This document shows, in pieces, positions 3,257 through 49,637 of a stretch of 49,637 nt of DNA. Source of the stretch: Actinomycetes bacterium. Lineage in GTDB: Bacteria; Actinomycetota; Acidimicrobiia; Spongiisociales; SHLN01. Where the stretch lies: NCBI GenBank assembly GCA_024638625.1, contig JAHEJY010000004.1, forward strand, positions 1 to 49,637, in the 5' to 3' direction. The first letter of the stretch is position 1; each line of letters starts with the position of its first letter. The notes under the pieces were generated by a model that saw only the letters and a list, made by a program, of their open reading frames with translations, ran no database searches and had not been told where the DNA came from. The position numbers and the translations under genes were made by a program.

Positions 3257-3592
3257 TCACGTGACGCGAGGGATCCAGTGAATCTCGACTCCTTCGGGCG
3301 TGACTCTGACACCACACAGGTCGACGCGAGCCACGGGAGGTTTGAGCTTGCTCGCCGCCCGTTTGACCTTTTCGGCTTTGTGGTCGTCAAAGGCCTCAAT
3401 GGGTTCAGCCATGATGCGGGTTTTGACCTCGACTACCGTGCACGATCGATCAGGCCATTTCACGATCAGGTCGAGCTCATCCCGGCCAACTCGACGGTTG
3501 CGATCGACGAGCGTAGCGCCGCGCCTCACGAGGAATGCCAACGCCTGGGCCTCGCCGAAGCGGGCGAGCTGTCTGCGGTCGGCGGCGATCAC
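3257..3592 (-). CDS. yraN: YraN family (UPF0102) endonuclease-like protein
   Basis: GEAQALAFL, LVDRN, ELDLI, VEVKTR; follows DUF2469 as usual. Confidence 0.8.
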   Translation of the reverse strand: MIAADRRQLARFGEAQALAFLVRRGATLVDRNRRVGRDELDLIVKWPDRSCTVVEVKTRIMAEPIEAFDDHKAEKVKRAASKLKPPVARVDLCGVRVTPEGVEIHWIPRVT

Positions 3593-33295: not shown

Positions 33296-33575
33296 GGAGT
33301 TTGCGGGAACCCTTCGGATTCGGGAACCCTTCGGGTTCCTTGGAGTTTGCGGGAACCCTTCGGGTTCCTAAGGAGTTTGCTCCGCAAACTCCACTTGACG
33401 CAAAGGGGCTAGAACACCCTGCGGATGCCATTCAGAAAACTCGGTAGAAAACTGGATCCTTCATTCACGCAAAGGGGCTTGAACACTCTGCGCATGCCAT
33501 CAGAAAAAGCAGATACCATTCAGAAAACTGGGCCCCACATTCACGCAAAGGGGCTAGAACACCCTGCGGATGCCA
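33274..33575 (+). repeat. Cluster of a palindromic REP/MITE-like element: 4 x CGGGAACCCTTCGG, one full 81-bp element (33350-33430), 3 x 33-bp tail
   Basis: CGGGAACCCTTCGG at 33274, 33304, 33321, 33350; ACGCAAAGGGGCT(A/T)GAACAC(C/T)CTGCG(G/C)ATGCCA at 33398, 33467, 33543. Confidence 0.9.
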
Positions 33576-34106: not shown

Positions 34107-35138
34107 CTATCCGAGAGCAGCCTTGACGAGCCCATCGATGAGGTCCGGGTATTTGACTCCCGACGCCTCCCACAGCAGGGGAAACATGCTCCGCTTCGTC
34201 ATGCCCGGCATGGTGTTGACCTCATTGAGCAAGAATCCTCGACCCGCTTCTTCGTAGAAGAAGTCGACCCTGGCCAGGCCGCTCAATTCGAGAGCCTGAA
34301 ACGCCCGACCTGCCAGAGTTTGCGCAGCAGCCATTTCGGACGTCGACAACGGGGCGGGCACATGCAATACGGTTCCCTCGTCATGGTATTTCGAGGCATA
34401 GTCGTACCAACTGCCGGTCGGCGGGACGATTTCACCCGGCACACTCATCCTCGGACCATCGAGAACCGCGACCTCTATCTCGCGGCCGACAATGCCCTCT
34501 TCCACGATCGCCTTCGAGCCGTGTTCGAACGCGAGAGTGAGTGCCGGTTTGACGCCGTCGGGTTCCACGACCTTGGAAATCCCGACCGAAGACCCGAGAG
34601 ACGCAGGCTTCACGAACATCGGAAGGCCCAGCTCCTTCTGGAGGAGGCTCAAGACGTCACCTGGCGCCTCATTCCACTCGGAGGCTCGTACGACAACGCT
34701 TCTGGACACCGGCAGTCCGGCGTCTATGAACACCCTCCTGGCCATGTCCTTGTCCATCCCCACTGCCGACCCCAGAACTCCGGCCCCGACGTAGGGGAGA
34801 CCGGATACCTCGAAGAGCCCCTGGACTGTGCCGTCTTCGCCGAAAGGTCCATGGAGCACGGGGAACACGGCATCTACCTCAATTGTCGAACCCGATTCAG
34901 ACAGCAACCGGCCGCCCGGGGTGAGCATATGGACGGTCTCCCCCACCGCTTCGAGCCGGTCCCGCTCGCCTGCAGGCTGACCAGAATCAGCCAGATGCCA
35001 GTCGCCCACCCGGTCGATCCCCACCGCTATCACCCGGTGGTGATGGGCCTCGAGCGCGGTGACCACTGACGCCGCTGACACACAAGAAACCTCATGTTCA
35101 GCAGATATTCCACCGAAAAGAACTAGGACAGAAGCCAC
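34107..35138 (-). CDS. ddl: D-alanine--D-alanine ligase
   Basis: GGISAEHEVS, LHGPFGEDG, GSSVG, NEVNTMPG. Confidence 0.97.
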   Translation of the reverse strand: MASVLVLFGGISAEHEVSCVSAASVVTALEAHHHRVIAVGIDRVGDWHLADSGQPAGERDRLEAVGETVHMLTPGGRLLSESGSTIEVDAVFPVLHGPFGEDGTVQGLFEVSGLPYVGAGVLGSAVGMDKDMARRVFIDAGLPVSRSVVVRASEWNEAPGDVLSLLQKELGLPMFVKPASLGSSVGISKVVEPDGVKPALTLAFEHGSKAIVEEGIVGREIEVAVLDGPRMSVPGEIVPPTGSWYDYASKYHDEGTVLHVPAPLSTSEMAAAQTLAGRAFQALELSGLARVDFFYEEAGRGFLLNEVNTMPGMTKRSMFPLLWEASGVKYPDLIDGLVKAALG

Positions 35139-35170
35139 GAGGAGACATTACTCGCGCAGCGAGCCACGTC

Positions 35171-37702
35171 ATGGGTGACGACCTTTACCAGGAACTAAGC
35201 AGCATGCGTCCCGAGCAGAAGCCTCGCAAACGCAAGAATCGCCGCGCCCAGGACGTCGATCCGGGCGCGGAGTCGAAACCACCAGCGGGCAGTGTCGAGC
35301 GACGTTCCCGGCGTCTCACGCTCGCCAGTGATACCGGGGATTATTTGCCGTCACGAAGAGCCAACGGTTCGGACACGCAACACCCCGGCCAGCCGGAAAC
35401 AGTCAACCAGGCAACACCAATGTCAAACCTTTCCCTGGGCTCCAAGGGGATCGTGCCAACCACCCGTAACTCGGGCCGTGACGAGGGCGCACCGGCAACA
35501 CTCAACCGCCCATCCACGAAACAACAGGTTGCTCACCAGCTTCCCGGCAACGTTGGTCAGGCTCCCCGGCTCGAAGCAACCCTGACCAACCTTGCACGAA
35601 CGGAGATTCCCAAGGTGAATTTCACGTTCACGAATCTCGATGAGGAATTCCCTCGCACTGACCAAGCCGACGAGGCAGGCTCCGTGAAGAAAATGAGCCG
35701 CAAGGACAAACGCGAGCTCAAACACCAGGAAAAGAGGGATCGCCAAGAAGAAAAGGACGAAGCCAAAGAGGCCAAACGTCGTGCCAAAGAACAGGCGAAA
35801 ACCGACCGCAAGAACGAGAGGAGGTCGCGTCGCGGCCAGCTCCCCATCGACCACACCGATGCCTCGCCGCTCACGCCCAAAGAACTCAAACGCCGACAGA
35901 AGGAACGGAAGCGTCAGCTCGATCAGCATCAAGTAGTAGCAGCGGGAAAAGTGCGGGCGATCAGGATCGGAATAATCCTCTGGTGGTTGGGACTGGCCGG
36001 AGCTGTCTACTACGGGTTTGTCACCTCCCGTATTGAAGACGCCACGTTCTCGATTCCCCTCCTCGCGGGCGGCGTCATGGCAGCGATTCAGAGCGTTCTG
36101 CCCTGGAAACGCCTTTCAGGGCGCCCCATCGGCCAGATTGCGAATCTCCTCGGCATCCTCGGAGGACTGGGCGTCATCACGACCCTGGCTGGTCACGTCG
36201 AATCAACAGTGATCGTCTTCAGCTTGTATGTCGTATTCCTGGCCTACGGCTCAGTGCTCTTGCCGCTCTGGGGCTATGGCGTGTCCGCCCTGGGAGCCGT
36301 TGGGGTGTATGGAGCAATCACCTGGATCGCAAACCCGACGGTGGGCGCCGACACGATCCTTCCCGTGGCATCGTTGGCTGTTGTCTCGATGGCGATCGCT
36401 CTCACAAATATGGAACTCCTTCGCTATGCGCGCGAGGCAGCGAGACGGTTGGTTCGACTCGAAATCCAACAGGATGGCCTGCAGGATCGACAGAAAGACC
36501 TGGAGGCCCTCTACGAAGTCTCCAGGACGATCGGCGCCGGTGAAGCCATCGAGAAGGTCATCCCGGAACTCATCGAGCGCACTGCCGGATACGTACATGC
36601 CAAAGTGGGGGTAATGCTGCTGTACCGGCCCGTGGAGGACATTCTCGACGCTCTCTCGCCGATATGGGCAGCCGGACAACCCCTCGAAGCCGACGGCTAT
36701 AACCTCCCGCTGTCCTCGAAATCGGGTGCGGTTTGGGCCTTCCGCAACGGGCAGCCGATCGCTATCAACGAGATTCCGGACGGAGTAACCGATCCCCTCA
36801 TACGGGACCTCGGGGTCGAACGGGTGGCTGCGGTACCTCTCCAGATCGAGAATCGTACGATTGGCGTGATGATGGTTGCCGACAAACCCACCGATTTCGA
36901 CGAGGCCGATCTGAAGACTCTGGAGCTGCTGGCCGCACCGGCCGCTCTCGTTCTGCAGAGTGTCGTCCGTCTGGAGGCGTCACAGGAAACCGGCCGCAAG
37001 ATGTCGGAGCTCGCCCAGATGAAGTCTGACTTCGTGTCGGTCGTGAGCCATGAGCTCCGTACCCCTCTCACCTCGGTGATTGGTGCCTTGTCGACGATGT
37101 CTCGACCCGAGCTCGCTCCCAGCAACCCGACTGCGGCCAGCCTCCTCGAGTCCGCCAGGAGCCAGGCTCAACGGCTGAAAGTCTTGATCGAGGACCTTCT
37201 CACGGTGTCAAAGATCGACAACCAGGCACTTCCGCAGCGCTCCGAGCTCGTAGAGGTGCAGTCGTTCCTGAGCGAGATGATCACAACAGGCGACAACTGG
37301 GATGCGGTTACCGTCGACGCCTCGGAGGCACTTGCACCGATACACATCGATCGGGACCACTTGCGGCGCATCATCACGAACCTGGTTGACAACGCTCGCA
37401 AGTACGCCGCGAACTCGACGATCGAGATAGTCGCCATGGAAGCGTCCGGCCGGGTCCGGATCTCGGTCATCGATCACGGCCCCGGAGTTCCTTTCCAGTT
37501 CCGGGAGACGATTTTCGAACGTTTCACCCAGGTGGAGGCGCCCGGAACACGTGGCACCGGCGGTACCGGTCTCGGTTTGAGCATTGTGAGAGAACTAGCG
37601 GAATCCATGAACGGCAAGGCGTGGTACGAGCCGACCGTGGGAGGTGGAGCCACGTTCATCGTGGAGTTTCCCGCCGTCGACGCCGCACTCGAGGTTGCCT
37701 AG
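35171..37702 (+). CDS. Membrane sensor histidine kinase (charged disordered N-terminus, ~6 TM, GAF, HisKA, HATPase)
   Basis: SHELRTPL H-box, NLVDNARKY, DHGPG, GTGLGL. Confidence 0.92.
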   Translation: MGDDLYQELSSMRPEQKPRKRKNRRAQDVDPGAESKPPAGSVERRSRRLTLASDTGDYLPSRRANGSDTQHPGQPETVNQATPMSNLSLGSKGIVPTTRNSGRDEGAPATLNRPSTKQQVAHQLPGNVGQAPRLEATLTNLARTEIPKVNFTFTNLDEEFPRTDQADEAGSVKKMSRKDKRELKHQEKRDRQEEKDEAKEAKRRAKEQAKTDRKNERRSRRGQLPIDHTDASPLTPKELKRRQKERKRQLDQHQVVAAGKVRAIRIGIILWWLGLAGAVYYGFVTSRIEDATFSIPLLAGGVMAAIQSVLPWKRLSGRPIGQIANLLGILGGLGVITTLAGHVESTVIVFSLYVVFLAYGSVLLPLWGYGVSALGAVGVYGAITWIANPTVGADTILPVASLAVVSMAIALTNMELLRYAREAARRLVRLEIQQDGLQDRQKDLEALYEVSRTIGAGEAIEKVIPELIERTAGYVHAKVGVMLLYRPVEDILDALSPIWAAGQPLEADGYNLPLSSKSGAVWAFRNGQPIAINEIPDGVTDPLIRDLGVERVAAVPLQIENRTIGVMMVADKPTDFDEADLKTLELLAAPAALVLQSVVRLEASQETGRKMSELAQMKSDFVSVVSHELRTPLTSVIGALSTMSRPELAPSNPTAASLLESARSQAQRLKVLIEDLLTVSKIDNQALPQRSELVEVQSFLSEMITTGDNWDAVTVDASEALAPIHIDRDHLRRIITNLVDNARKYAANSTIEIVAMEASGRVRISVIDHGPGVPFQFRETIFERFTQVEAPGTRGTGGTGLGLSIVRELAESMNGKAWYEPTVGGGATFIVEFPAVDAALEVA

Positions 37703-37741
37703 GCGATTTCAGACGCTGTCGCAACTCCTAACGTTTCGCAT

Positions 37742-38908
37742 GTGTCGGAACGCCGTGAATTTCCAGCCAGCCTGGGGGCCAGCCTCTTGCTGCTTACCGG
37801 CGCGAGACTCACTGTCAACTCCGCCATCAGGTTCGTGTATCCCTTCCTCGGAGTCATATCGCGGGGACTCGGCATCCCCATCGAGCAGGCCGGGCTCCTC
37901 GTGTCTGCCCGCTGGGCTGCGGGCCTGGCTACCCCTGCGGTCACAGCAACGGTCGGACGCCAGAACGGCCACCGGCGCCAGATCGTGATCGGGCTGGCTC
38001 TGTTTGGAGTCGGAGCGGCCGCCGCAGCCTCATTCGGAACACTCACAGGCGCCATGGTCGGTTTCGCCGCGATGGGCCTCGCCAAACCGAGTTTTGACGT
38101 TGCGGCCCAGGCCTACCTTGCTGATCGAGTTCCGTACGAACAACGGGCCCGTTCGCTCGGAATCTTTGAGATGACATGGGCGGGTAGTTTTCTCGTCGGC
38201 GCGCCTGCAGCTGGTTGGCTCATTGCAAGGGGCGGATGGACCGCCCCGTTCTGGGTTTTTGCGGCGATCTTGATCGTGGCGGTCGTGCCCACGGCACGCA
38301 CCCTCGACAGCAACCCTGCCAAGCGCGAAAAGCAAAAGAAGCTCGACTGGGACAGGTCCGCGATCGCTCTGTTGTTGGTCATGAGCCTTTTCGCCGGAGG
38401 CGCCGAAGTCCTGTTTGTCATCTTCGGTGTCTGGCTCGAGGGTTCCTTCGGCTTGGCCATCGTCGCCCTCGGAGCAACCTCAATATTCGTCGGTCTTGCC
38501 GAGTTGGCCGGCGAGGGTGCGACGGTGGCCGTTACCGATCGACTGGGAAAACGGCGTGCGCTCGTACTCGGTTTGGCCGTCTCGGCCATGGGATACGCGC
38601 TTCTCATCCCGGGCGAAGACAGCTTCGTAATGGGACTCGGAGCACTGGGTCTGGGGCTGGCAGGATTCGAGTTCGCCATCCTGTCGTCGGTCCCGCTCCA
38701 AACCGAGTTGAAACCGGGAGCTCGAGCGCAGTTGCTCTCCTGGGCCGTGGTTTCCATGGGGATCGCAAGGGCGATCGGGGCTGGAATCGGGCCGATGCTA
38801 TATAGCGCGTTCGGCCTCTCCGGAAACGCGATCCTGGCGGCCACGCTCAACGCTGCCGCAATCGCAGTCTTGATCCGGTGGGTGCCCGAGCCCACCGCCA
38901 GCGATTGA
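37742..38908 (+). CDS. MFS transporter
   Basis: About 12 TM helices; TDRLGKRR motif A. Confidence 0.9.
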   Translation: MSERREFPASLGASLLLLTGARLTVNSAIRFVYPFLGVISRGLGIPIEQAGLLVSARWAAGLATPAVTATVGRQNGHRRQIVIGLALFGVGAAAAASFGTLTGAMVGFAAMGLAKPSFDVAAQAYLADRVPYEQRARSLGIFEMTWAGSFLVGAPAAGWLIARGGWTAPFWVFAAILIVAVVPTARTLDSNPAKREKQKKLDWDRSAIALLLVMSLFAGGAEVLFVIFGVWLEGSFGLAIVALGATSIFVGLAELAGEGATVAVTDRLGKRRALVLGLAVSAMGYALLIPGEDSFVMGLGALGLGLAGFEFAILSSVPLQTELKPGARAQLLSWAVVSMGIARAIGAGIGPMLYSAFGLSGNAILAATLNAAAIAVLIRWVPEPTASD

Positions 38909-38909
38909 G

Positions 38910-39695
38910 CTACTCGTCGACGCCGGCCGCTATCGCGTGGAACCCTCCGTCGACATGGATGACTTCTCCGGTTGTGGCCTGCGCCCAGTCTGAAAGCAAC
39001 ACACACACCATGCGGGCCACCGGCTCGGGATCGGACACGTCCCAGAACAGCGGTGATCGCTGGCTCCAAACCCGGGAAAACTGGTCAAAGCCCGGAATGG
39101 ACTTGGCAGCCACCGTACCGAGCGGGCCGGCTGACACGGCGTTCACCCTGATAGCTTCTCGACCGAGATCCCTGGCAAGATAACGAACGACCGAGACGAG
39201 CGCGGCTTTCGCCACGCCCATCCAGTCATAGGCCGGCCAGGCCTGACGGTTGTCGAAATCGAGCGTTACCAGGGAACCGCCGCCTCCAGCTTTCAGAAGT
39301 GGGAGCAGGCCGACTGCCAGCGTCTTCAGAGAGTACGCGGAGGTCATGAACGCGGTCTGGGCGCTTTCCGGGGGCGTGGCGAGAAAATTGCCTCCCAGCG
39401 CATCCTCAGGGGCGTACGCGATGGCGTGAAGTGCTCCGTCAACGGCTCCCCACCGGGTCGTGAGGTTGTCGGCAAGCGCGGAAACATGATCAGGATCATT
39501 GATATCCAGCTCGAGCACATCCGGTGGCACCGGCAAGCGATTGGCTACGCGCTCGGTGAGTTTCATGCCTCGACCGAAGCTCGTCAAAACGATCTCGGCG
39601 CCCTCCTCCTGGGCGATGCGAGCTACATGAAAAGCGATTGAACCGTCGGTGAGAACGCCAGTGATGACGAGGCGTTTTTCGTCAAGTAGTCCCAT
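38910..39695 (-). CDS. fabI: Enoyl-ACP reductase FabI (InhA-type)
   Basis: GVLTDGSIAF, YDWMGVAK, VSAGPL, IHVDGG. Confidence 0.95.
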   Translation of the reverse strand: MGLLDEKRLVITGVLTDGSIAFHVARIAQEEGAEIVLTSFGRGMKLTERVANRLPVPPDVLELDINDPDHVSALADNLTTRWGAVDGALHAIAYAPEDALGGNFLATPPESAQTAFMTSAYSLKTLAVGLLPLLKAGGGGSLVTLDFDNRQAWPAYDWMGVAKAALVSVVRYLARDLGREAIRVNAVSAGPLGTVAAKSIPGFDQFSRVWSQRSPLFWDVSDPEPVARMVCVLLSDWAQATTGEVIHVDGGFHAIAAGVDE

Positions 39696-39720
39696 AGGGC
39701 AACTCTAAACCGGGCGACGA

Positions 39721-40077
39721 TCAGAAACTGCGACCGAAGGTCATGATGCCGCGGATTCCCAAACCCATCGTGAAGAGGAGCAACAAGCCCCAGCGCAAAC
39801 CGGGCCGTTTGTCGAGCTGGTCGCGATACACGTACGCGAACGTCAGTGTGAAGAGAATGATGAAACCGTAGAACATGTGCTGGGAACCAGGACGCTGACC
39901 AGTGTTATAGAGGTAAACACCCGCAAGGACCTGGACAACCAGTGCACCCAGGGTTGTCATCATCGCCGGTTTGAAGGCTCTGGGCATCGGCCGATTCCTC
40001 AGCCCGAGCGCCCAGAGTCCTGTGAGGCCCACCGCCGCCGTCACCACATACCCAAAACCGGTGTGAAACGCTCCCAT
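39721..40077 (-). CDS. Hypothetical four-TM membrane protein
   Basis: Hydrophobic 118-aa ORF with HMFYG motif; TAACCT 6 nt before the ATG. Confidence 0.75.
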   Translation of the reverse strand: MGAFHTGFGYVVTAAVGLTGLWALGLRNRPMPRAFKPAMMTTLGALVVQVLAGVYLYNTGQRPGSQHMFYGFIILFTLTFAYVYRDQLDKRPGLRWGLLLLFTMGLGIRGIMTFGRSF

Positions 40078-40120
40078 GCGATCAGGTTACGGCCCGGATC
40101 GCGGGTAACGTGAACCGGTC

Positions 40121-40402
40121 ATGGGCCGAACTGAACGAATCATCGGCGACATCGAACGCAAGTTGCTCGACCTCGCGGACGAACGATCGCTCTTGCTCGA
40201 AGAGCTATCTGATCATCGCGATCTAGCCGACGATGCCGCCCGTGATGCCGCAGTCTTCGACAGTCCCATCGATCGGGAAGCCGCCACGATGACTTCCGGC
40301 GACGTCTCGAGGATCGAGCGTCTCCTGTCGAAGAATGAGAAGGTCCGCATGAAACTGCTCAATCGTCTCGAACGGCTCGAACGTCTCGACGGTCTCGATT
40401 GA
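40121..40402 (+). CDS. Hypothetical coiled-coil protein
   Basis: Charged helical 93-aa ORF; TAACGT upstream. Confidence 0.7.
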   Translation: MGRTERIIGDIERKLLDLADERSLLLEELSDHRDLADDAARDAAVFDSPIDREAATMTSGDVSRIERLLSKNEKVRMKLLNRLERLERLDGLD

Positions 40403-40482
40403 TCGACCACCGGGGATGTCATCGCCCGGGCCATTCCGAGGCTCCGTATTCAATCGCCCCCGCGGATCAATCGCCGCCGAAT

Positions 40483-41097
40483 TCAATCGATCGTGTCGAG
40501 GATCCGGGCCTTTTGCTGTTTGAATTCTTCGTCGGTCAGGGCTCCTTGCCGATGGAGCTCGGCAAGTTGCGCCAGGCTCGCCACATCTTTGTCGATCCGG
40601 CTTGAAACACCTGACAGGACTTTGGTTCTGTCCTCGCGCACGCGGTATAACTCACTATGGAACTTCTGGGGGTGCGGGATGTTCGACAGCCTGCTTTGAC
40701 CAAGCTCTCCGGCGGACTCGATGACGACATCGCCGAAGCCCATCAGCCTTTCGAACAAGGACTGAGAGAACCCGACATCGTTCACGACCTCGAGAGGTAT
40801 CTCCATGCCCGTACGCGCCAGGATCCCCTTCCGAACTATGAGCCGCTCGCTCGTAAGAACGTACAGCGTGTAGTACCAGCGTGTCACCGGCAAAGCGGCG
40901 AGACCAATCCAGCCTGCGACCAACGCCACGAGCGAAGCCCACCTCGGCCACCCATCAGGTAGCAAGTTCCATACGAGAACCGAAGCAACGATTACGAGGA
41001 TCGTCCAGATAATGGGAATGATGAGAGTCTTCCAGTGAGGCCGGAATGCTCGCTGGATGGTTTCGTCTTCGGTGAGAAAATCGGATGGATACGGCAT
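40483..41097 (-). CDS. Bacterial PH-domain membrane protein with C-terminal SHOCT domain
   Basis: RPHW, two TMs, YVLTSERL..RKG, LAELHRQGALTDEEFKQQKARIL. Confidence 0.9.
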   Translation of the reverse strand: MPYPSDFLTEDETIQRAFRPHWKTLIIPIIWTILVIVASVLVWNLLPDGWPRWASLVALVAGWIGLAALPVTRWYYTLYVLTSERLIVRKGILARTGMEIPLEVVNDVGFSQSLFERLMGFGDVVIESAGELGQSRLSNIPHPQKFHSELYRVREDRTKVLSGVSSRIDKDVASLAQLAELHRQGALTDEEFKQQKARILDTID

Positions 41098-41119
41098 GAC
41101 AAAAGGCTAGCGCCCACGG

Positions 41120-42016
41120 TCAATCGGCGGCCGCAGAATTGCGGGACACCACCTGCGAGGTGGGATCCGCCGGAGTTGTCCCGGTATCGTCGGCAAAGGC
41201 GGGACAAATGTCCTGGAACGAGCACCAGTCGCACAAACGGCCCGGTCTCGGGCGGAAGTCGTCGCTCCGCAGCGCCTTGGCGATCGCATCCCAGAGCGCT
41301 CGCACCTGCTTGTCCATCGCATCGAGCTGTTTGTCGTGGATATTGAGTCGATACATCGTCGGGCCGTTGAGATATAACAAACGGACTTCCTTGGGTGTAC
41401 GCCCAAGGCGTTTTCGGATCAGCAGCGCATAGATCTTGAGCGCAAAGAAGGCCGGGAGTGCATACCGCTCCGGCGGAGCCTTGCCAGTCTTGTAGTCCGT
41501 GATGATCAGATCCCCATTCGCATCTTCGTCGATGCGATCCAGAATTCCGCGCACCGCTACTCCCTCGAGTTCCTCGAGCATGTCGTACTCACAGAACATG
41601 GGGTCGATCGATCGTGGATCTTCAAGCGAGAAATAGTTCGCGAGTAGCTCCATACTCTCCAATCCCCACGCTCGCTCATCGTCGAGCGATGCGAACAGGT
41701 CGGGATACTCCTCCATACGAAGCTCTGACCAGGCCTGCCGGAACAGTTCATACAACTGCTCCGGAGATCGATCCGGCGACGGTAGCTGGAAAAGGTTCTC
41801 CAGCGCCAGGTGGGCGGCAGTGCCGCGGGCCTGATACACGGTCGAGGGCTCCGGCAGACGCTCGATGAAGCGGTATTTGAAGAGCTGGGGACATTGCTTG
41901 TAGTCACTCAAGCGGCTGGGAGACACCCGTGGCTCGATGGGCGGCCCACCGGGCGAACCAGAGGGGGTCGGATGAGCGGTGACCGAAGAGGGGGATGGAG
42001 TGGTGAGGGCTGTCAT
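41120..42016 (-). CDS. Stand-alone RecB-family PD-(D/E)XK nuclease with four Cys (probable Fe-S)
   Basis: SPSRL..YKQCP, RGTAAH, GILDRID, ITDYKTGK, LCDWCSFQDICP. Confidence 0.92.
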   Translation of the reverse strand: MTALTTPSPSSVTAHPTPSGSPGGPPIEPRVSPSRLSDYKQCPQLFKYRFIERLPEPSTVYQARGTAAHLALENLFQLPSPDRSPEQLYELFRQAWSELRMEEYPDLFASLDDERAWGLESMELLANYFSLEDPRSIDPMFCEYDMLEELEGVAVRGILDRIDEDANGDLIITDYKTGKAPPERYALPAFFALKIYALLIRKRLGRTPKEVRLLYLNGPTMYRLNIHDKQLDAMDKQVRALWDAIAKALRSDDFRPRPGRLCDWCSFQDICPAFADDTGTTPADPTSQVVSRNSAAAD

Positions 42017-42054
42017 CGGATGCGCCCAAACAGCACGACAGGCTCCTGCCCTTG

Positions 42055-42199
42055 CTTACGTTTCATGGTTCTTACGTTTCATGTTGTTTCTCGGCTGGTT
42101 CGTTCACGACTGGTTCGTTCACGACTGGTTCGTTCACGACTGGTTCGTTCACGACTGGTTCGTTCATGACTGGTTCGTTCATGACTGGTTCGTTCACGG
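42055..42199. repeat. Tandem repeats: 2 x 16-bp-period CTTACGTTTCATG, then 7 x 15-bp CTGGTTCGTTCA(C/T)GA
   Basis: 15-bp units at 42095, 42110 ... 42185; no spacers. Confidence 0.95.
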
Positions 42200-42440
42200 C
42201 TGTTGCCTAGGTTCATCTATACGCACTTTACGCCATCAGAGTGACACGTTTGTAATTCTCCCGCAAGAGGCCGTCGGCGCACGCCCGGTACGCTGCCAAA
42301 ACCACCCGTCGTCTCGTTCCCATCTGGTGGGAACATGATGGAAGCGATATGACGCCACATGTGCGAAAAGTGGCTCTAGATTGCCGAAAATCAGACCCGC
42401 GGGCGTGAGAAATGGGATCAAGAACTCGAAACCAGATGAG

Positions 42441-42516
42441 GCGCGAAAACTATGTCTTGTTCGCGAAATCTGTCGAGCGATCTAGCTTGACTCCCCTGGG
42501 CCGACCCTCGTATGTT
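42441..42516 (+). promoter_or_regulatory. Sigma70-type promoter TTGACT-N18-TATGTT with upstream CGCGAAA direct repeats
   Basis: -35 at 42487-42492, -10 at 42511-42516; gCGCGAAA at 42441 and tCGCGAAA at 42461. Confidence 0.7.
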
Positions 42517-42522
42517 CGCAAA

Positions 42523-42832
42523 GCACTCGCATGTGGACCCCACATCGAGTGCCCCGTCGGAGGTGATGGGGCACCGACCCTGGTCGGTCCGCCAATGCCG
42601 CAGACGGAGTGGGCTTCGAACCGGAGGAATCCGGATGAACCTCCCGCCAAGGTTCATGAGAAGCCGGGCGGCGTCGCCATAGCGGCCGGGCAGGTCTCAG
42701 GACCCCGGGCTGATCTGACGACAAGCGCCAACATGAGCGCCGCAAGGCGCCGGCCCGGATGCATCCTCCGAGGGGGTGTCCGGGGGCAAAACCCCGAGAG
42801 GGCGTTCTTCGGAGCGGTCACTCGGGGTTTTT
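42523..42832 (+). ncRNA. Candidate ~310-nt structured non-coding RNA (RNA-S), family unknown
   Basis: Own promoter, continuous hairpins (42523-42552, 42549-42574, 42635-42657, GCAA-capped 42737-42750, 42754-42784) and a U-tailed terminal hairpin; no convincing ORF. Confidence 0.65.
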
Positions 42833-42834
42833 GC
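42786..42834 (+). terminator. Intrinsic terminator-like hairpin with cUUCGg loop
   Basis: AAAACCCCGAG..GTTC-TTCG-GAGC..CTCGGGGTTTTT. Confidence 0.75.
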
Positions 42835-42928
42835 ATGTCTGGACACATGTGCATGCAAGAAAAAGGGGGTTTGGCGGATTTCACGAGAAACGAAGAACGT
42901 GGCAGCATGGTGTCCATGGATTCACGAC

Positions 42929-44737
42929 ATGACATCTGAGACCGAATGCCAGATCGCCATCATCGGTGCCAACCGCGCCGGGATCGGTGTGGCCACCGAC
43001 GCCTACGAGGCCGGTATCGACAAAATCGCCATCTTCAGCAAGGATCCCCTCGAATTTCGACTTCCGAACGCGCCGCAGGGGGACACCACACTGATGGGAA
43101 CGCCCGACGAGTACATCGGGTCGCCCGTTACACGCCTGGTTCAGCACGACGACCACGTTGAGGTTCACACCGATGATCTGGTGGTAAAAGCCCAGGTTGC
43201 CGTCGTCGCCGCCAGGGCCGGACTGGAATCGGCCCCGCCCCCCTACGAGATCCCGGCGGCCGTTGCTGCCCGGGTACATATGTCCATGCCGGACGATATC
43301 GACATGGATGCCGACATACTCATCATCGGAGTCGGCGAGACGGCAGCTGAATACTGTGAAGATCTCGTCGACTCCGGATACACGTCCGTGGTCCTCAGCC
43401 TGCCGTCAACAGCGTTCGATCGCCTGGCTCCGGCAACACGCGATCGGCTGAGAGAGGTCGAGTCCCGCCTTCAGGCAACCGTGCTCTGGCACGCACATCC
43501 AACCGGGGTCATCGACGCCGGCGGCGTTCCGATGGTCACCTTTGACGACCGCCGAACGCCTGACCTGGTGTTCGACCACGTCATCTACTCGCTGGGTCCG
43601 GGCCAGAAGGCGGGCAGGCTGGAGCGACTGGGAATTGACCTGCAAAGCGATGCAGTCGAGAACCCGTCACTGGTCGTGTTGAGCCAGCTCGATGATGATG
43701 ACACCCCGCATGCCGAGCCGGTCATTTACGTCTCGCCCGGTCACGCCTGGAGGCTCATACACGACACGCATTTTCCCGAGCTGGCGCCTGCACACGATCT
43801 CGAGGCGCGACCTCCTCTCCTCCGATATCAGCTCGCCGAACACCTCCGCCGGGACGCTTACAACGCCACCATCACCTCGTTCGACCGCCGGCATGGGGAT
43901 CTCTGGGTTATCCGAGTCAAGCCCGACACCGGTGGGGTAGAGCATTTTCCCGGCCAGTACACGACTCTTGCCCTCGGATATTGGGAACCACGAATCGACG
44001 GCCTGGATGAACACCTCGAAGAGGCCAAGTTCGAGAAACTCGTGCGCCGTTCGTATTCGATCTCGTATCCGATCCTCGAGGATGATCGATTGGTTCGACC
44101 CGAGGAGATCGATGGTCTGGAGTTCTACATCGTTCTCGTCCGGGCCGAAGGAATGGATCATCTGCCGGAACTGACCCCTCGCCTCGCGCTCAAGCGAGAA
44201 GGCGACCGGATTTTCATGGGTACCAAGGTCACCGGGCGCTACACACTCAAACCGGTCACGGATCCCGAGATGGACGTCATCTTGCTGTCGACAGGAACCG
44301 GCGAGGCGCCGCATAACAACATGATCGCCCAGCTCCTCCGTGATGGGCACACCGGCAAGATCATTTCTGCCTGCACGGTTCGCTACAACGAGGACCTCGC
44401 CTATCTCCATACCCACCGTCGCCTGGAAGAGCTGTATTCCAACTACACGTATCTGCCACTTACCACTCGCGAGCCCGAAACCATCAACAACAAGGTCTAC
44501 ATCCAGGACCTGATCACGAAAGGGCTGCTGTCCGAAGCACTCGGCCACGAACCGACTCCCGAACGTTCACAGTTCTTCCTATGCGGCAACCCGCTGATGA
44601 TCGGGCTCCCCGCTGTCGACGGCGACACCGTAGCCTTCCCCGAATCGATTGGCGTGTGTCAGATTCTGGTCGAGCGGGGCTTCACAATCGCTCACCGCGG
44701 CATCGATGGAAACGTTCACTACGAGGAGTACTGGTAA
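42929..44737 (+). CDS. Ferredoxin--NADP+ reductase fused to an N-terminal degenerate pyridine-nucleotide-disulfide oxidoreductase-like domain
   Basis: C-half has PGQY, VRRSYSI, STGTGEAP, LCGNPLMI, HYEEYW; N-half has IAIIGANRAGI and ILIIGVGETAAE Rossmann-like motifs. Confidence 0.85.
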   Translation: MTSETECQIAIIGANRAGIGVATDAYEAGIDKIAIFSKDPLEFRLPNAPQGDTTLMGTPDEYIGSPVTRLVQHDDHVEVHTDDLVVKAQVAVVAARAGLESAPPPYEIPAAVAARVHMSMPDDIDMDADILIIGVGETAAEYCEDLVDSGYTSVVLSLPSTAFDRLAPATRDRLREVESRLQATVLWHAHPTGVIDAGGVPMVTFDDRRTPDLVFDHVIYSLGPGQKAGRLERLGIDLQSDAVENPSLVVLSQLDDDDTPHAEPVIYVSPGHAWRLIHDTHFPELAPAHDLEARPPLLRYQLAEHLRRDAYNATITSFDRRHGDLWVIRVKPDTGGVEHFPGQYTTLALGYWEPRIDGLDEHLEEAKFEKLVRRSYSISYPILEDDRLVRPEEIDGLEFYIVLVRAEGMDHLPELTPRLALKREGDRIFMGTKVTGRYTLKPVTDPEMDVILLSTGTGEAPHNNMIAQLLRDGHTGKIISACTVRYNEDLAYLHTHRRLEELYSNYTYLPLTTREPETINNKVYIQDLITKGLLSEALGHEPTPERSQFFLCGNPLMIGLPAVDGDTVAFPESIGVCQILVERGFTIAHRGIDGNVHYEEYW

Positions 44738-44739
44738 CC

Positions 44740-45102
44740 ATGGATATTCGTCTAAGCCTGGTCGCGCTCGACTGTCCCGATCCTCTGGCACTCGCCGGGT
44801 TCTATCGCGATCTGACCGGCTGGCCCGTCGGTCATGTGAGCGACGACTGGGTCGAACTGGATGCAGGCGACGGCGTGACCATCGCATGCCAAAAAGTAGA
44901 GGACTTCTCACCGCCGGTGTGGCCCGGGTCCCAGCACCCCCAACAGCTCCACCTGGATTTCGATGTTGACGACCTGGATGAGGGCGAAGCCCATGTACTC
45001 AAAGTTGGGGCCATCAAGACTGATGAACAACCCAAGCCTCAATCCTGGCGTGTGTTTTTGGATCCCGCCGGCCACCCCTTCTGTCTCGTCCTAGCCGATT
45101 AG
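44740..45102 (+). CDS. VOC/glyoxalase family protein
   Basis: LDCPDPLALAGFY, QLHLDF, DPAGHPFCL. Confidence 0.92.
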   Translation: MDIRLSLVALDCPDPLALAGFYRDLTGWPVGHVSDDWVELDAGDGVTIACQKVEDFSPPVWPGSQHPQQLHLDFDVDDLDEGEAHVLKVGAIKTDEQPKPQSWRVFLDPAGHPFCLVLAD

Positions 45103-45128
45103 ACGTGTTATTCAAGGCATGTTATTCA

Positions 45129-45207
45129 TGGCATGCGCAGAGTCTTAGAGCCCCTTTGCGTCAAGTGGAGTTGCGCAGCAACTCCCAAGGAACCCGCAGG
45201 GTTCCCG
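45129..45207 (-). repeat. Second, inverted copy of the ~80-bp double-hairpin element at 33350-33430
   Basis: Minus strand CGGGAACCCTGCGGGTTCCTTGGGAGTTGCTGCGCAACTCCACTTGACGCAAAGGGGCTCTAAGACTCTGCGCATGCCA. Confidence 0.9.
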
Positions 45208-45228
45208 CCGCCGACAACCAACACGCGC

Positions 45229-45283
45229 AAAAACCCCGGGCTGACAGTCATCTCCGAAGAGATGTCCGCCCTCTCGGGGTTCT
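45229..45283 (-). terminator. Intrinsic terminator-like hairpin with cUUCGg loop, homologous to 42786-42834
   Basis: Minus strand AACCCCGAGAGGGCGGACATCTC-TTCG-GAGATGACTGTCAGCCCGGGGTTTTT. Confidence 0.75.
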
Positions 45284-45960
45284 TGCCGGCCCTGCCCACT
45301 CCGGTCCCAACGCTTCGCAGTGGTCCGGTCGTTCACCCGAAGGTGAGCGTCCGGTACTCCGAAGAGCCGGCTCCGCAGCTTTCTGCAGCGCCCTGGCTCC
45401 GTCACCGTTCCTGACTCAACAGGCACCGATTGCTGCCGGTCTCTCGACCAGCCACTCCCGGTTCGGCTCGAGTGCCAAACCCAAAGTCACGTATTCTCGT
45501 CGGTCCTTCCCCGAAGGGTCGGGCCGTCTCGAAGTTTGCAACTCCGGTACCGAAGCAACGTCCGTCCACTGCATCCTGGCTGCGTCGTGCAACGTTTCCG
45601 TCGCTACGCGGCCCTTCAACAACAGCCTTCTGAGGCTCCGGTTGCCTGGAATGGTCCCAAGTCTTGCGACCCGCTTCCATGCCGGGCCGGGAACTTCCTC
45701 GGCTATTCCCGCACCTCCCGATTTTTCCCCTTGCGGTTCAAATTCGTTCGGTAAAAGAGGCCCTGGAAGTGCCCTCGCCTTCCAAAGTCCTGCAGATCCC
45801 TCCGAGTCACCCGTTAAGACAAGCTCTTTGGTCCCTGCCTGACCGGTCATCCGTTGTCGCCTTCCGTTTTACCGGCGTGACACGTCACCGAAGTGGCATG
45901 TCACAAAAGCGACGGGACGACCAAAGGTCGGCCGCTGTCCGGGATCACTCCCGATCAGCG
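45229..45960 (-). ncRNA. Candidate ~730-nt large structured non-coding RNA (RNA-L), family unknown
   Basis: Own promoter and terminator; six CTTCGG and several GNRA-capped stems on the minus strand; nested long-range pairings. Confidence 0.75.
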
Positions 45961-45965
45961 TCAGA

Positions 45966-46040
45966 ACAATACGCCGACCTAACCCCCCGGTCAAACGTCA
46001 CGGCTGTTTAGTTTTCGCGCTCTACAACCTTGTTTCGCGA
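45966..46040 (-). promoter_or_regulatory. Sigma70-type promoter TTGACC-N17-TATTGT with upstream CGCGAAA direct repeats
   Basis: -35 at 45994-45989, -10 at 45971-45966; tCGCGAAA starting 46040 and gCGCGAAA starting 46020. Confidence 0.72.
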
Positions 46041-46096
46041 CCGCCCGGAGTGCCTTTTTATCACTCTTTTCGAATGATAGGTCGGCTCGGAAATCC

Positions 46097-46118
46097 TGTC
46101 ATATCGCACGGCTAGCTT
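46097..46118 (+). promoter_or_regulatory. Possible PafBC/RecA-NDp-like promoter (TGTCAT-N10-TAGCTT) of leaderless adnAB
   Basis: Resembles mycobacterial TGTCGG-N10-TA-N3-T; the -10 ends 7 nt before the ATG at 46126. Confidence 0.4.
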
Positions 46119-46125
46119 CACAACC

Positions 46126-49050
46126 ATGGCGACCATAGAAGTGCATCCCGGGCGCTGGGATGATGCGATTGCCGATACCGACGGACCGCAGATCGTTGTA
46201 GGAGGGCCTGGAACGGGCAAGACCGAATTCCTCGTGAGGCGCGCCTCCTACCTGATCGAGCGTGGCACGGATCCATCGGCAATCGCAATACTCGGCTTCT
46301 CGCGGCGAGGGGCGGCTGGAATTCGTGATCGAATCGAGGCAAGGCTCGATGAGACCACCGCAGGCATTTCAGCATCTACGTATCACTCGCTGGCGATGAG
46401 GATCCTCGAATCGCATGGCAACTCGGCAGGCGAACCACCGGCGTTGCTCACTGCGCCTGAGCAAGTTGCGTTCGTCGCTGATCTTCTAGCCGCAGAAGAT
46501 CCTGCGAACTGGCCTGCCGCCTATCGGCCGATTCTGCAATCGTCGAGATTCGCCCAGGAGGTCACCGACTTCTTGCTGCGCTGCGCCGAGCAGAGAATCG
46601 GGCCAACCGAAGTCGCGGCATTCGAACGCGATGACTGGAAAGGGCTTCCCGGCTTCTTCGAGAACTATCTCACAAGCTTGGAAGAGGCCGGACGCCTTGA
46701 CTACGGATCGCTCATCGTCCAGGCGGTTGACCTTCTCGACGATCCGATCGTGGCGGAGGCGCTGTCGGAGCAGTTTCAATACGTGCTGGCGGACGAATAC
46801 CAGGACACATCCCATGTTCAGGCTCGCTTCCTCCAGGCACTGGCACGGCATCACCGGAATCTCACCGCAGCTGCCGACCCCTATCAATCCGTCTACAGCT
46901 TTCGGGGAACGGATCTCGCGAACGTTGCCCGGTTTCCCGAGGAGTTCAGAGACGCCGACGGTCGGCCGGCGCGGCGGATCGTGTTGCCGACCTCATTCCG
47001 CGTGCCGGGCGAAATCCTGCGTGCTGCCGAATCGTTGACGACGAACCTGAACCTGCCGGGGGCAGCAGGTCCCGTCGAAGGGGTCGCGAGCGCGGGCCGC
47101 GTCGACGCCCACCGGTTCGACCAGGCGACCGAGGAAGCCGAGTGGATAGCTCGAGAAATCGAGCGAACCCACGTCGTTGATGGCACCGCGTATCAGGACA
47201 TCGCCGTGTTTGTGAGAACAAAGAAGCGTTTCATGTCCGAGTTGTCCCGAGCGCTCGAGCGCCGGGGCATCCCACACAATCGGCCGGATTCCCGCCTCGT
47301 CGACCATCCCGCCGTCCGGATATTGTTCGATCTCGTCACGGCCGCAACCGCCACGGGTGCGGATCAGGATCGGGCCCTTCGCCGGCTCGCACTGGGACCA
47401 CTTCTCGGACTTCCGCCAGGCGAGTTTTACCGGATTTCCCACGAGCAAGGCACCCGCGGTTGGATCAACGTGCTCGGTGAGCACAGCCCTGGCGGAGCGG
47501 CCATCGCAGGATTGATCTCGAACCCGGCGTGGGCGACGACCATGTCGGCAGCAGAAGGTCTCTGGCACATGTGGGAATCCCTACCCCAGGTCGTTGACGT
47601 CGCCAACGATCCGCAGAGACAGAACGAGCGTTTGGGTTGGTCCTCCATCAGCCAGGTACTGGGTCGCCAGTTCGAACGTGACGAAACCGTGACGCTGCAG
47701 CAATACCTCGGCTGGACAGAGAAAGACGATTTCGAGGCCGACCCTTTGCTTCGTCATCAATCGAGTCGCGTTCCAGAGGTGACCCTGACCTCCCTTCATC
47801 AAGCCAAGGGTCTCGAATTCGATACCGTCTTCATTGCAGATGCCGTCGAGGGAGTGTTCCCCGATTTGAGAGCGCGAGAATCGCTTCTGGGCTCGCGACA
47901 TCTGTCCTCATCGCTGCCTGCCGATGTTGTCCAATACCGCCGGTTCCGACTTCAGGAAGAAGCCCGGCTGGCATACACAGCCATGACCCGCGCTTCCCGG
48001 CGTGTGATCTGGACAGCGACCTCCGCAGGTGACGACTTCCGGCCCGGGGGCCCCAGCCGGTTTCTCGATCGGCTCGGCATCCCGGTTGATCGTCCGCCAG
48101 ACAGGATGCTGCCGGTTTCGGTGCTCGAAGGAGAGGCCTGGTTGCGGAGAATCGCAGCCGACCCCGGGGCGGGGATTGCTGCGAGATCGGCGGCCATCGA
48201 ACATTTGGCCAGTGGCCAGGCATGGGGCGGTCGGGATCCCCTTCGCATTGCCGGAGTTCTGCGTCGTGGCTCGAATAGGGGGATCACTACCCCAGGCAAG
48301 CTTCGCCTCTCTCCCAGCCAGGCCGACAGCTATGCCCGCTGCCCCCGTCAGTACGCCCTGGAAAGGCGTCTGCGATTCTCGGATGGTCCGACGGTACACC
48401 TCGCCTTGGGAAACGTCGTGCATCAGGTGATTCATCAGACCGATGTACATCACCCTGATCCCGTCGTCGAAGATGCGCTGACAACCCTGGATGATCGTTG
48501 GGACCCGGCCGACTTTGGCGGACCGCCCTGGGCTGACGCCTGGTATCTGCGCGCCCGTCATATGCTCGAAAACCTCTACAAACATCGCAACCGGAATCAT
48601 GAGGTGGTTGAGTCCGAGTACGACGTCACGCTGGATGCCGGTGGAGTGCAGTGGAGTGGTTCAGTCGATCGTATCGAACGTCGCGGTTCGCAACTCTGGA
48701 TCGTCGATTTCAAGACGTCGAAAACGCCCGCCCGGGCAGACGAAGCCGCCCGATCGATCCAGCTTGGCTTCTACGTTCTGGCCACGCAACAAGACCCGGG
48801 TTTGTCGGCGTTGGGAGAAATCACGGGAGCCGAGCTCTGGTATCCAGCCGTCCCGCAGAAGAAGCAACCCTTTGCGACCCGCCCGTTCAACATGTCGTTT
48901 CTTCCCCAGGTTCGCCAGACGATGTCTGAGCTTGCAGCCGATGTCGAGGCGGAGCGCTGGGATCCGGTGCCGGGAGAGGCCTGTCGCCACTGCACCGTGC
49001 GATCGTCGTGCCCCGCGGTTCCGGAAGGCCAGGAGGCCTATGCCGGATGA
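46126..49050 (+). CDS. adnA: AdnA-like UvrD-type helicase plus RecB-type nuclease
   Basis: GGPGTGKT, ADEYQD, DPYQSVYSFRG, HQAKGLEF, YTAMTRA; C-terminal VDRI...VDFKT and CRHC...CP. Confidence 0.88.
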   Translation: MATIEVHPGRWDDAIADTDGPQIVVGGPGTGKTEFLVRRASYLIERGTDPSAIAILGFSRRGAAGIRDRIEARLDETTAGISASTYHSLAMRILESHGNSAGEPPALLTAPEQVAFVADLLAAEDPANWPAAYRPILQSSRFAQEVTDFLLRCAEQRIGPTEVAAFERDDWKGLPGFFENYLTSLEEAGRLDYGSLIVQAVDLLDDPIVAEALSEQFQYVLADEYQDTSHVQARFLQALARHHRNLTAAADPYQSVYSFRGTDLANVARFPEEFRDADGRPARRIVLPTSFRVPGEILRAAESLTTNLNLPGAAGPVEGVASAGRVDAHRFDQATEEAEWIAREIERTHVVDGTAYQDIAVFVRTKKRFMSELSRALERRGIPHNRPDSRLVDHPAVRILFDLVTAATATGADQDRALRRLALGPLLGLPPGEFYRISHEQGTRGWINVLGEHSPGGAAIAGLISNPAWATTMSAAEGLWHMWESLPQVVDVANDPQRQNERLGWSSISQVLGRQFERDETVTLQQYLGWTEKDDFEADPLLRHQSSRVPEVTLTSLHQAKGLEFDTVFIADAVEGVFPDLRARESLLGSRHLSSSLPADVVQYRRFRLQEEARLAYTAMTRASRRVIWTATSAGDDFRPGGPSRFLDRLGIPVDRPPDRMLPVSVLEGEAWLRRIAADPGAGIAARSAAIEHLASGQAWGGRDPLRIAGVLRRGSNRGITTPGKLRLSPSQADSYARCPRQYALERRLRFSDGPTVHLALGNVVHQVIHQTDVHHPDPVVEDALTTLDDRWDPADFGGPPWADAWYLRARHMLENLYKHRNRNHEVVESEYDVTLDAGGVQWSGSVDRIERRGSQLWIVDFKTSKTPARADEAARSIQLGFYVLATQQDPGLSALGEITGAELWYPAVPQKKQPFATRPFNMSFLPQVRQTMSELAADVEAERWDPVPGEACRHCTVRSSCPAVPEGQEAYAG

Positions 49051-49062
49051 ACGGATGAGAAG

Positions 49063-49637
49063 ATGAACATCGACCCAACGCCCGAACAACTCGCCATCAT
49101 GGAATACGACGCCGGAAAACCTCTTCGGGTAGCCGCGGGAGCCGGGACCGGCAAGACTTCGACGATCGCGTTGCGGCTCGAGACACTCATCTCGCAAGGC
49201 GCGGTAGATCCGGAGACCACACTCGGTATCACCTTCACGGTCAAGGCGGCCGAAGAACTCCAGCATCGTTTGATGACACAACTCCACGAGCTGGCCAAGG
49301 ATGGGCGCATGCCACTCGTGACCACCTACCACGGTTTCGCGTTCTCGATCGTCCAGGAGTTCGGCGGATATGTGGGACTCGAACAGCAAACCCGTGTGAT
49401 CACCCCGGGATTCGGCCGACAGCTCCTGCTCGAGACCTTGAGCGAGGGCCAGTACGAGCACCTCGACTTGACACATGTTCGGGGGCGGATTGAAGAGCTG
49501 GTCGGGCTGGGGTCCGAGCTCTCCAATCACCTCTATCGACCACAGGATCTGTTCGCGGAGGTCGATGCGAACGACGACATCGGAGCCCGGCGCCGCGAGC
49601 TGGCGGCAGTTCTGGCCCGGTACGATGAGAAGAAGCG
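49063..49637 (+). CDS. adnB: AdnB-like ATP-dependent helicase (partial; runs off the right end of the window)
   Basis: Manual translation MNIDPTPEQLAI...AGAGTGKTST...GITFTVKAAEEL...TTYHGF; tandem with adnA. Confidence 0.88.
   Translation, partial: MNIDPTPEQLAIMEYDAGKPLRVAAGAGTGKTSTIALRLETLISQGAVDPETTLGITFTVKAAEELQHRLMTQLHELAKDGRMPLVTTYHGFAFSIVQEFGGYVGLEQQTRVITPGFGRQLLLETLSEGQYEHLDLTHVRGRIEELVGLGSELSNHLYRPQDLFAEVDANDDIGARRRELAAVLARYDEKK

Follow-up and report, generated by a model that had tools for sequence, protein, structure and literature searches.

The window, a stretch of 49,637 nucleotides (nt) analysed here at its full length (contig JAHEJY010000004.1 of assembly GCA_024638625.1, class Acidimicrobiia), holds this genome's two members of a family of non-coding RNA genes, named RNA-S and RNA-L, each of which is preceded by a pair of CGCGAAA boxes. 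These boxes belong to a rigid promoter cassette, in which a box, 13 nt, a second box, 18 nt, the -35 hexamer, 17-18 nt and the -10 hexamer follow one another. Across one order of the Acidimicrobiia, the cassette is used only for this small set of non-coding RNA genes, of which there are 1-3 per genome. Judged by how they have been conserved, the boxes are a real, selected cis-regulatory element. The source assembly (G000) comprises 232 contigs, with 60.7% G+C and a completeness of 86.5%.

An earlier note on this DNA had described an identical upstream geometry at both promoters, and each of its elements was found again when the window was re-read (Table 1); the box coordinates given there (42441/42461 and 46040/46020) take in one base before each 7-mer. 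The boxes are 20 base pairs (bp) apart at both promoters, as had been reported. The distance from the proximal box to the -35 hexamer is also the same at both, but it amounts to 25 bp when counted from the 7-mer, the figure of 26 bp including one preceding base. Moreover, the 12-mer GCGCGAAAACTA is indeed common to both promoters, starting at 42441 (+ strand, distal box) and at 46020 (- strand, proximal box), while the bases between the boxes differ from one promoter to the other. Both core promoters, which are of the sigma-A type, are listed by a promoter scan of the window.

Table 1. Promoter elements, RNA genes and divergent protein genes at the locus, in window coordinates.
Feature	Position	Strand	Remarks
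RNA-S distal box CGCGAAA	42442..42448	+	About -81 to -75 from predicted start; read from sequence
RNA-S proximal box CGCGAAA	42462..42468	+	About -61 to -55; begins 25 bp before -35
RNA-S -35 hexamer TTGACT	42487..42492	+	Sequence, promoter scan
RNA-S -10 hexamer TATGTT	42511..42516	+	18-nt spacer; sequence, promoter scan
RNA-S, predicted non-coding transcript, ~311 nt	42523..42833	+	5' end inferred from -10, 3' end from terminator
RNA-S terminator, family type, CCCCGAGAGGG...CTCGGGGTTT between A-run and T-run	42792..42830	+	Motif scan
RNA-L distal box CGCGAAA	46033..46039	-	Read from sequence
RNA-L proximal box CGCGAAA	46013..46019	-	Begins 25 bp before -35
RNA-L -35 hexamer TTGACC	45989..45994	-	Sequence, promoter scan
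RNA-L -10 hexamer TATTGT	45966..45971	-	17-nt spacer; sequence, promoter scan
RNA-L, predicted non-coding transcript, ~732 nt	45228..45959	-	Bounds from promoter and terminator
RNA-L terminator, family type	45231..45279	-	Motif scan
Stand-alone PD-(D/E)XK nuclease gene	41120..42016	-	Pfam PF12705, 9.7e-38; divergent from RNA-S
UvrD-helicase + PD-(D/E)XK nuclease gene, AdnA/AdnB-like	46126..49050	+	Pfam, NCBIfam; divergent from RNA-L; start 87 bp beyond distal box

Taken alone, the 7-mer CGCGAAA is not enriched, as it occurs 13 times in the window against 12.57 +/- 3.70 in shuffled controls (53 of 100 shuffles reach 13), and 465 copies are present in the whole genome. The genome scan proposed in the earlier note, for CGCGAAA-N13-CGCGAAA-N18-TTGAC, yielded 2 matches in 2,805,994 bases on both strands, and both lie in the window. 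By arithmetic at 60% G+C, approximately 2e-5 matches to the full pattern would be expected per genome, and the count stays at 2 when one substitution is allowed per element and the last gap is set to 17-19. The box arrangement is not chance. Elsewhere in the genome, a third copy of GCGCGAAAACTA stands solitary on contig C211, with neither a second box nor a promoter, and weaker matches on contigs C211, C162, C154 and C190 were set aside as single boxes or odd spacings with no promoter. The additional CGAAA copies that the earlier note had pointed out are present at 42364, 42385 and 42427, and two of the three are retained in every genome of the genus but G001 (3 of 4). However, they are not part of the shared element: across 114 dereplicated sites, among the matches listed in the public scan described below, there is no upstream position from -200 to -6 at which CGAAA occurs in 5 or more sites.

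Conservation within the genus was evaluated in four genomes, the source genome and three others, of which G001 is the most distant. In phylogenetic footprinting, also proposed in the earlier note, neither box varies at either promoter in 4 of 4 genomes, even though the RNAs of G001 have an identity of only about 70%. A lack of box conservation at orthologous loci, which the note had named as a refutation, was thus not observed. Variation is seen in the same alignment in the upstream flanks, between the proximal box and the -35 hexamer, and in the -35/-10 spacer. The contrast between invariant boxes and diverged flanks in the genus, together with constant distances and spacers of near-zero information in the 115 sites considered next, supports the suggestion that both the boxes and their spacing are under selection.

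To follow the element beyond the genus, 596 billion bases of species-representative genomes were scanned for the exact 19-base pattern, which was found in at least 130 stretches, as compared to about 4 expected by chance (arithmetic), giving at least 133 distinct sites. The following counts hold among the matches listed. Nearly all pattern-bearing stretches are Acidimicrobiia metagenome-assembled genomes; of 80 titled loci, 58 read 'Acidimicrobi', 6 Actinomycetota, Actinobacteria or actinobacterium, 8 'bacterium' only, 4 Acidobacteriota and 4 other taxa. TAnnnT follows the -35 hexamer after 17-18 nt at 127 of 133 sites, and the family terminator, with at most 1 mismatch per arm, was detected at 61 of the 74 sites having at least 1 kilobase (kb) downstream; two loci scored as lacking it (L031 and L035) visibly have variant terminators. 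Five sites (L067, L072, L085, L096 and L102) look like chance. Four loci titled Acidobacteriota (L039, L074, L077 and L107) have the cassette too, together with a short RNA that hardly differs from that of Acidimicrobiia-titled records, and their titles or binning may be wrong. A single pattern match was recorded in viral contigs, in coding-looking DNA with neither a -10 hexamer nor a terminator, and was read as chance.

A sequence matrix was then derived from 115 of these sites, dereplicated at 80% identity from the 126 with enough flank, leaving out the window's own two sites and the five chance-like ones, which bear non-actinobacterial titles. Positions that the pattern does not fix are also conserved in it, namely A at +27 (92/115), C at +28 (97/115) and A at +30 (86/115), so that the proximal box reads CGCGAAAAC-A-A--A-C, while the spacers are at about 0 bits, that is, at background. 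The taxonomic limit was determined in a sample of 201 Acidimicrobiia genomes, evenly drawn, of which 49 represent the window's order and 152 other orders. The exact pattern, present in 1-3 copies per genome, occurred in 23 of the 49 in-order genomes and in 0 of the 152 from other orders, with the reversed pattern, used as a control, giving 0 everywhere; the terminator motif occurred in 41 of 49 vs 1 of 152, with 0 in the control. Five genomes of the order have neither exact motif, and 3 of them possess a box pair with TTG at the right distance, so that roughly 47 of the 49 hold the module. All genomes of the order are uncultured assemblies of varying completeness.

The terminators provided an independent anchor. 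Upstream of 42 of them, in 29 loci outside the source genome (whose own locus, L168, was excluded), the sequence was searched without selecting on boxes. Scored over the 19 fixed positions, the best match was perfect in 15 cases, had one mismatch in 6 and had two in another 6, amounting to 27 of 42, against 1 of 42 with at most 2 mismatches on the opposite strand, and that single case is the promoter of a divergent RNA gene. With the spacings left free, a full promoter was recovered for 30 of the 42 terminators: the boxes are 20 bp apart in 25 of these promoters and 21 bp in 5, the -35/-10 spacer is 17 nt in 20 and 18 nt in 10, and the proximal box begins 25 bp before the -35 hexamer in all 30. 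Moreover, the boxes are kept better than the -35 hexamer, since they are perfect in 29 of 30 terminator-anchored promoters whereas TTGAC is found in only 15 of 30; in many members, perfect boxes are followed by a weak hexamer such as TTGCGC, TTGCCC or TTGGCA. In one genome (G037, locus L191, 9851-9917), the region between two divergent RNA genes contains four boxes, two facing each way, which follow an exact 20-bp lattice. The rightward promoter of that lattice is almost devoid of a -35 hexamer behind its perfect boxes.

We then focused on the transcripts. That both promoters drive non-coding genes, as the earlier note had held, agrees with the lack of Pfam matches for open reading frames (ORFs) overlapping RNA-S or RNA-L, with the lack of Rfam matches (in the whole window at the gathering score, and in 42000-46500 at E up to 1), and with a conservation of the RNA type in alignments. 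Orthologues of RNA-S (90, 85 and 71% identical) and of RNA-L (81, 81 and 69% identical) exist in 3 of 3 further genomes of the genus, and the two genes are likewise convergent in G001 and G002, where both share one contig. In four-way alignments, compensatory changes were observed in 9 of 102 predicted pairs of RNA-S, in which indels break the reading frame, and in 18 of 217 predicted pairs of RNA-L, in which entire hairpins are gained or lost and the frame is not respected. RNA-S also folds more stably than shuffled controls, with a minimum free energy z-score of -4.62. RNA-L cannot be a leader, because it is convergent into the end of a glyoxalase-family gene. The terminator motif CCCCGAGAGGG...C(C/T)CGGGGTTT has exactly 2 matches in the genome, at the ends of RNA-S and RNA-L, and the bodies of the two RNAs give no BLAST match to each other. 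As promoter layout and terminator type are common to both, they are probably paralogues.

Further observations were made beside the two genes. An oxidoreductase ORF (42776-44737, + strand) has a listed start that overlaps the RNA-S terminator, and the nearby ATG codons at 42907 and 42916 are out of frame. Just past the RNA-L terminator lies one copy of a composite repeat resembling repetitive extragenic palindromes (REP-like; window 45121-45223 on the - strand, and 33349-33500 on the + strand), made of small hairpins, GGGAACCC..GGGTTCC and GGAGTTGC..GCAACTCC, and then a conserved tail; many copies occur in the genome and in the family's genera g1 and g2, and none was found in sampled g3. Three tandem 41-bp units containing CGCGAAAACCCGCC, at about 3400-3560 (- strand) on contig C224 of the source genome, have neither the family promoter nor the family terminator, and are probably another repeat element.

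Among the matches listed, 105 distinct RNAs are bounded by cassette and terminator, and their lengths span 93 to 1345 nt (median 259). Their bodies are conserved inside subfamilies and different between subfamilies; a MAFFT alignment over 60 heterogeneous RNAs was too gapped and was replaced by subfamily alignments. One subfamily of about 147 nt, present in many genera (L039, L043, L054, L073, L074 and about 20 other loci) and not found in the window's genome, has an invariant GGGGGCCCGCUUUCC segment, and 19 of its 39 predicted pairs show compensatory change over 24 aligned sequences. According to the predicted fold, most of this segment is a hairpin loop; it could act as a seed or bind a protein. 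The family is characterised by tetraloop hairpins of the UUCG and GNRA types, with 42 tetraloop hairpins per kb in the RNA bodies vs 23 per kb in flanking DNA. In 23.7 kb of RNA bodies, the loops are UUCG (146), GCAA (79), GAAA (49) and GAGA (36), and CTTCGG and CGCAAG are enriched 9.9-fold and 13.3-fold, respectively. Rfam gave no match in 20 related loci at the gathering score, nor in 6 more at E up to 1, and ARAGORN detected no transfer RNA (tRNA) or transfer-messenger RNA (tmRNA) in 135 downstream stretches. The RNAs are a previously uncatalogued structured family with no Rfam match, and a limited literature collection contained no description of either the family or the box element. The Rfam 6S model (RF00013) was not found in G000, G037, G027, G161 or G036, the latter four being 94-99% complete, and CsrA (PF02599) had no match in G000, which is 86.5% complete.

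Altogether, we put at somewhat above one half (roughly 0.55) the probability that the boxes are the operator for a dedicated putative activator of this new tetraloop-hairpin RNA family. A dedicated sequence-specific DNA-binding protein would occupy the two direct repeats, centred near -58 and -78, which lie roughly on the same face of the DNA because they are about two helical turns apart. Once bound, it would make contact with RNA polymerase carrying the primary sigma factor and increase or gate transcription, and the RNA genes would thereby be co-regulated. An activator is favoured over a repressor or a factor-independent element on account of the base-exact distance to the -35 hexamer, the upstream position, the weak -35 hexamers behind perfect boxes, and ribosomal RNA (rRNA) promoters that have no boxes. 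Sites placed at about -55 to -81, built as direct repeats and kept better than the -35 hexamer fit an activator, though they do not show one.

Several points weigh against this interpretation. No helix-turn-helix regulator is conserved beside the RNA loci in the 45 short and 8 long loci annotated. The core promoters are near consensus here and may not need an activator, and sites ahead of a promoter can equally act in repression, looping or bending. A look-up of RNA records covering 42300-46200 gave nothing, comparison with three metatranscriptome contig sets of the same study yielded a single 35-base piece, less than 90% alike and unusable, and the RNA starts and ends are predicted ones. In addition, the matrix sites were chosen by the pattern, so that their fixed positions are conserved by construction and only the terminator-anchored tests escape this circularity; likewise, counts over many instances come from related genomes sharing one ancestral cassette, and are not independent events.

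Among the explanations that dispense with a dedicated activator, the one that survives best, although we consider it unlikely, needs no factor beyond the polymerase: its two alpha C-terminal domains would bind the boxes as a displaced UP element, or phased A-tracts would bend the DNA, and a strong stable-RNA promoter would be boosted in this way. There are exactly two boxes for the two alpha subunits of RNA polymerase, and each box carries AAA(A) at a spacing of 20-21 bp, or about two turns, but the best-conserved part of the box is the G+C-rich CGCG. Near-consensus core promoters would suit such an arrangement as well; the element, however, is located at about -55 to -81 and not against the -35 hexamer, and the stretch between is not A+T-rich. 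In work on rrnB P1 of Escherichia coli, UP function is reported to drop when the element is moved upstream. A general polymerase contact should also recur at strong promoters, whereas the genome has 2 sites and no box pair lies within 800 nt ahead of 16S rRNA in any of four near-complete genomes from the order.

A repressor or silencer acting on the boxes, which would hold the RNA genes off until a signal arrives, for instance by polymerising or looping over the 20-bp lattice, appears to us distinctly improbable. The core promoters do look strong enough to need restraint, and the four-box lattice of G037 would suit cooperative binding. The boxes, however, never overlap the -35 hexamer, the -10 hexamer or the start, and a -35 distance fixed in 30 of 30 promoters is typical of polymerase contact, not of a roadblock; the many members with a weak -35 hexamer behind perfect boxes also resemble activator-dependent promoters.

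The neighbourhood of the RNA genes was annotated in 45 loci of 3 kb (excluding the ORFs of L067 and L085 and those of the loci that follow L091) and in 8 loci of 20 kb. Recurring neighbours are AdnA/B-like helicase-nucleases, glutamate dehydrogenase, the stand-alone nuclease, bPH_2-SHOCT proteins, an AMP-binding enzyme and a FabI-like reductase, and a GAF histidine kinase gene lies beside the locus in the window and in 3 of the 8 long loci. The usual neighbour is the nuclease gene, found divergently in 18 of 45 short loci and, with orientation not scored, in 8 of 8 long ones. The boxes could belong to divergent DNA-repair genes, for example as a damage-response operator, with the position of the RNA promoter being incidental. 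In the window, the AdnA-like gene does start 87 bp beyond one pair, and the second pair lies in the intergenic stretch that separates the nuclease gene from RNA-S. Nevertheless, this origin of the boxes is very improbable, as their distance to the RNA -35 hexamer is fixed while that to the protein start varies (426 bp vs 87 bp in the window), and as the nuclease gene is carried by 115 of 121 genomes of the class, with boxes absent beside it in 10 loci from other orders. Tandem RNA genes (L050, L065, L099, L101, L105 and L144) each have their own box pair, the second and third of them with no divergent gene, and the boxes are therefore tied to the RNA promoter and not to the divergent genes. 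On the same counts, the nuclease was discarded as a partner of the RNAs and is regarded as a landmark; those 10 loci contain only loose terminator-like matches (2 mismatches per arm), which look like chance. A small ORF kept beside the locus (39721-40077) was considered as a regulator and rejected, as it encodes a membrane protein.

In the window, the RNA genes are situated inside a conserved housekeeping block (34110-42016 and 46126-49635), in the order ddl, GAF histidine kinase, MFS, FabI-like reductase, small membrane protein, bPH_2-SHOCT, PD-(D/E)XK nuclease and AdnA/AdnB-like. In the window's genus, an oxidoreductase gene and the glyoxalase-family gene are inserted between RNA-S and RNA-L.

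Lastly, that the boxes are mere inherited likeness between old duplicate cassettes, with promoters not yet diverged and boxes with no present function, is hardly credible and already contradicted by the conservation pattern: RNA-S and RNA-L do share promoter layout and terminator type as probable paralogues, but their bodies no longer match by BLAST, the inter-box bases differ and carry background information across the order, and the 14 box bases and three distances, which neutral decay would hit first, are kept across families of the order.

Returning to the activator, what appears to be new here is the motif, its geometry and the RNA family, while an upstream operator for small RNA genes would be of a known kind. 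Acidimicrobiia are abundant in soils, sediments and waters, and their transcription control is experimentally little known. The cis-element is sharply defined: 14 of its bases are invariant, three distances are fixed, natural instances number at least 125 and the taxonomic boundary is clean. It is therefore usable as bait for the regulator; promoter and terminator now also allow members of the RNA family to be recognised, although their bodies have diverged too far for BLAST. A more far-reaching possibility, which we regard as tentative and on the whole doubtful, is that an order-specific regulator has a regulon of just these 1-3 tetraloop-hairpin RNA genes, as a decoy circuit resembling Gac/Rsm that arose independently, in which the RNAs would titrate an RNA-binding or RNA-polymerase-binding protein. 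Were the regulon limited to these RNAs, a layout known so far mainly from systems of the Gac/Rsm type would have a second, independent case; the RNAs would also be candidates for the role of the 'missing' global RNA regulator, the lineage having no 6S or CsrA match.

With regard to known RNAs, no known stable RNA was detected downstream by ARAGORN or Rfam, which sets the cassette apart from tRNA, tmRNA or rRNA promoters. The nearest actinobacterial analogue is Ms1, an abundant structured RNA, a few hundred nt long and poorly conserved in sequence, from a phylum that rarely yields a canonical 6S. The phrases describing the Ms1 flanks are 'oxidoreductase' and HAD-IB hydrolase (PMC9130861), and 'Acidimicrobi' does not occur in the main text of that paper. 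An oxidoreductase gene also follows RNA-S in the window and in the locus of a genus relative (L063), and in no other annotated locus; by contrast, neither the window nor any of the 45 short or 8 long loci contains a HAD hydrolase, so that the synteny described for Ms1 (PMC9130861) is not found here. The usual neighbours here are instead the nuclease, bPH_2-SHOCT and AMP-binding genes, and the predicted fold is a string of hairpins, not a rod with a central bubble.

Promoters with upstream elements offer a further comparison. At rrnB P1 of E. coli, Fis sites and an UP element raise the output of a near-consensus stable-RNA promoter from helically phased upstream positions, and promoters of this class serve rRNA and tRNA genes. 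The present cassette similarly combines a near-consensus promoter with helically phased upstream sites, but four rRNA promoters of the order have no boxes, and the core of the box is G+C-rich and does not abut the -35 hexamer. An UP element is an A+T-rich block directly upstream of the -35 hexamer, at about -38 to -59, whereas the boxes are at about -55 to -81 with a CGCG core, and the composition from the proximal box to the -35 hexamer is mixed. The features present are rather those of a primary-sigma promoter of the class I type, with -35 and -10 hexamers separated by a 17-18 nt spacer and upstream sites at a fixed, helically consistent distance.

Direct repeats are also recognised by winged-helix regulators. 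The pho boxes of OmpR/PhoB, the SARP heptamers and the a/b boxes of actinobacterial GlnR have a period of 11 or 22 bp and in most cases overlap the -35 hexamer or take its place, and GlnR b-sites read GAAAC. With these operators the cassette shares short direct repeats, a fixed distance to promoter elements and a setting in high-G+C bacteria, and the GAAAC of GlnR resembles the 3' part of the box. The period of 20-21 bp is different, however, and 18 bp separate the nearest repeat from a good -35 hexamer; moreover, unlike at GlnR sites, no GTnAC resembling an a-site is conserved 11 nt upstream, and no second half-site is conserved at +10/+11.

The closest functional analogy to the boxes would be the GacA/UvrY site that precedes rsmX/Y/Z and csrB/C in gamma-proteobacteria, a single palindrome confined to a few hairpin-rich small RNA genes with intrinsic terminators, whose Rsm/Csr products expose GGA motifs for CsrA. 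The two systems belong to different phyla and have no sequence relation: the boxes are direct repeats 20-21 bp apart, whose preceding bases complete no palindrome, and the dominant loops here are UUCG, GCAA, GAAA and GAGA in place of GGA loops. Nevertheless, in both cases the site is located well upstream of the -35 hexamer and is confined to a few hairpin-rich RNA genes, as are 2 of 2 sites in this genome, and in both the copy number and the length of the RNAs vary between species.

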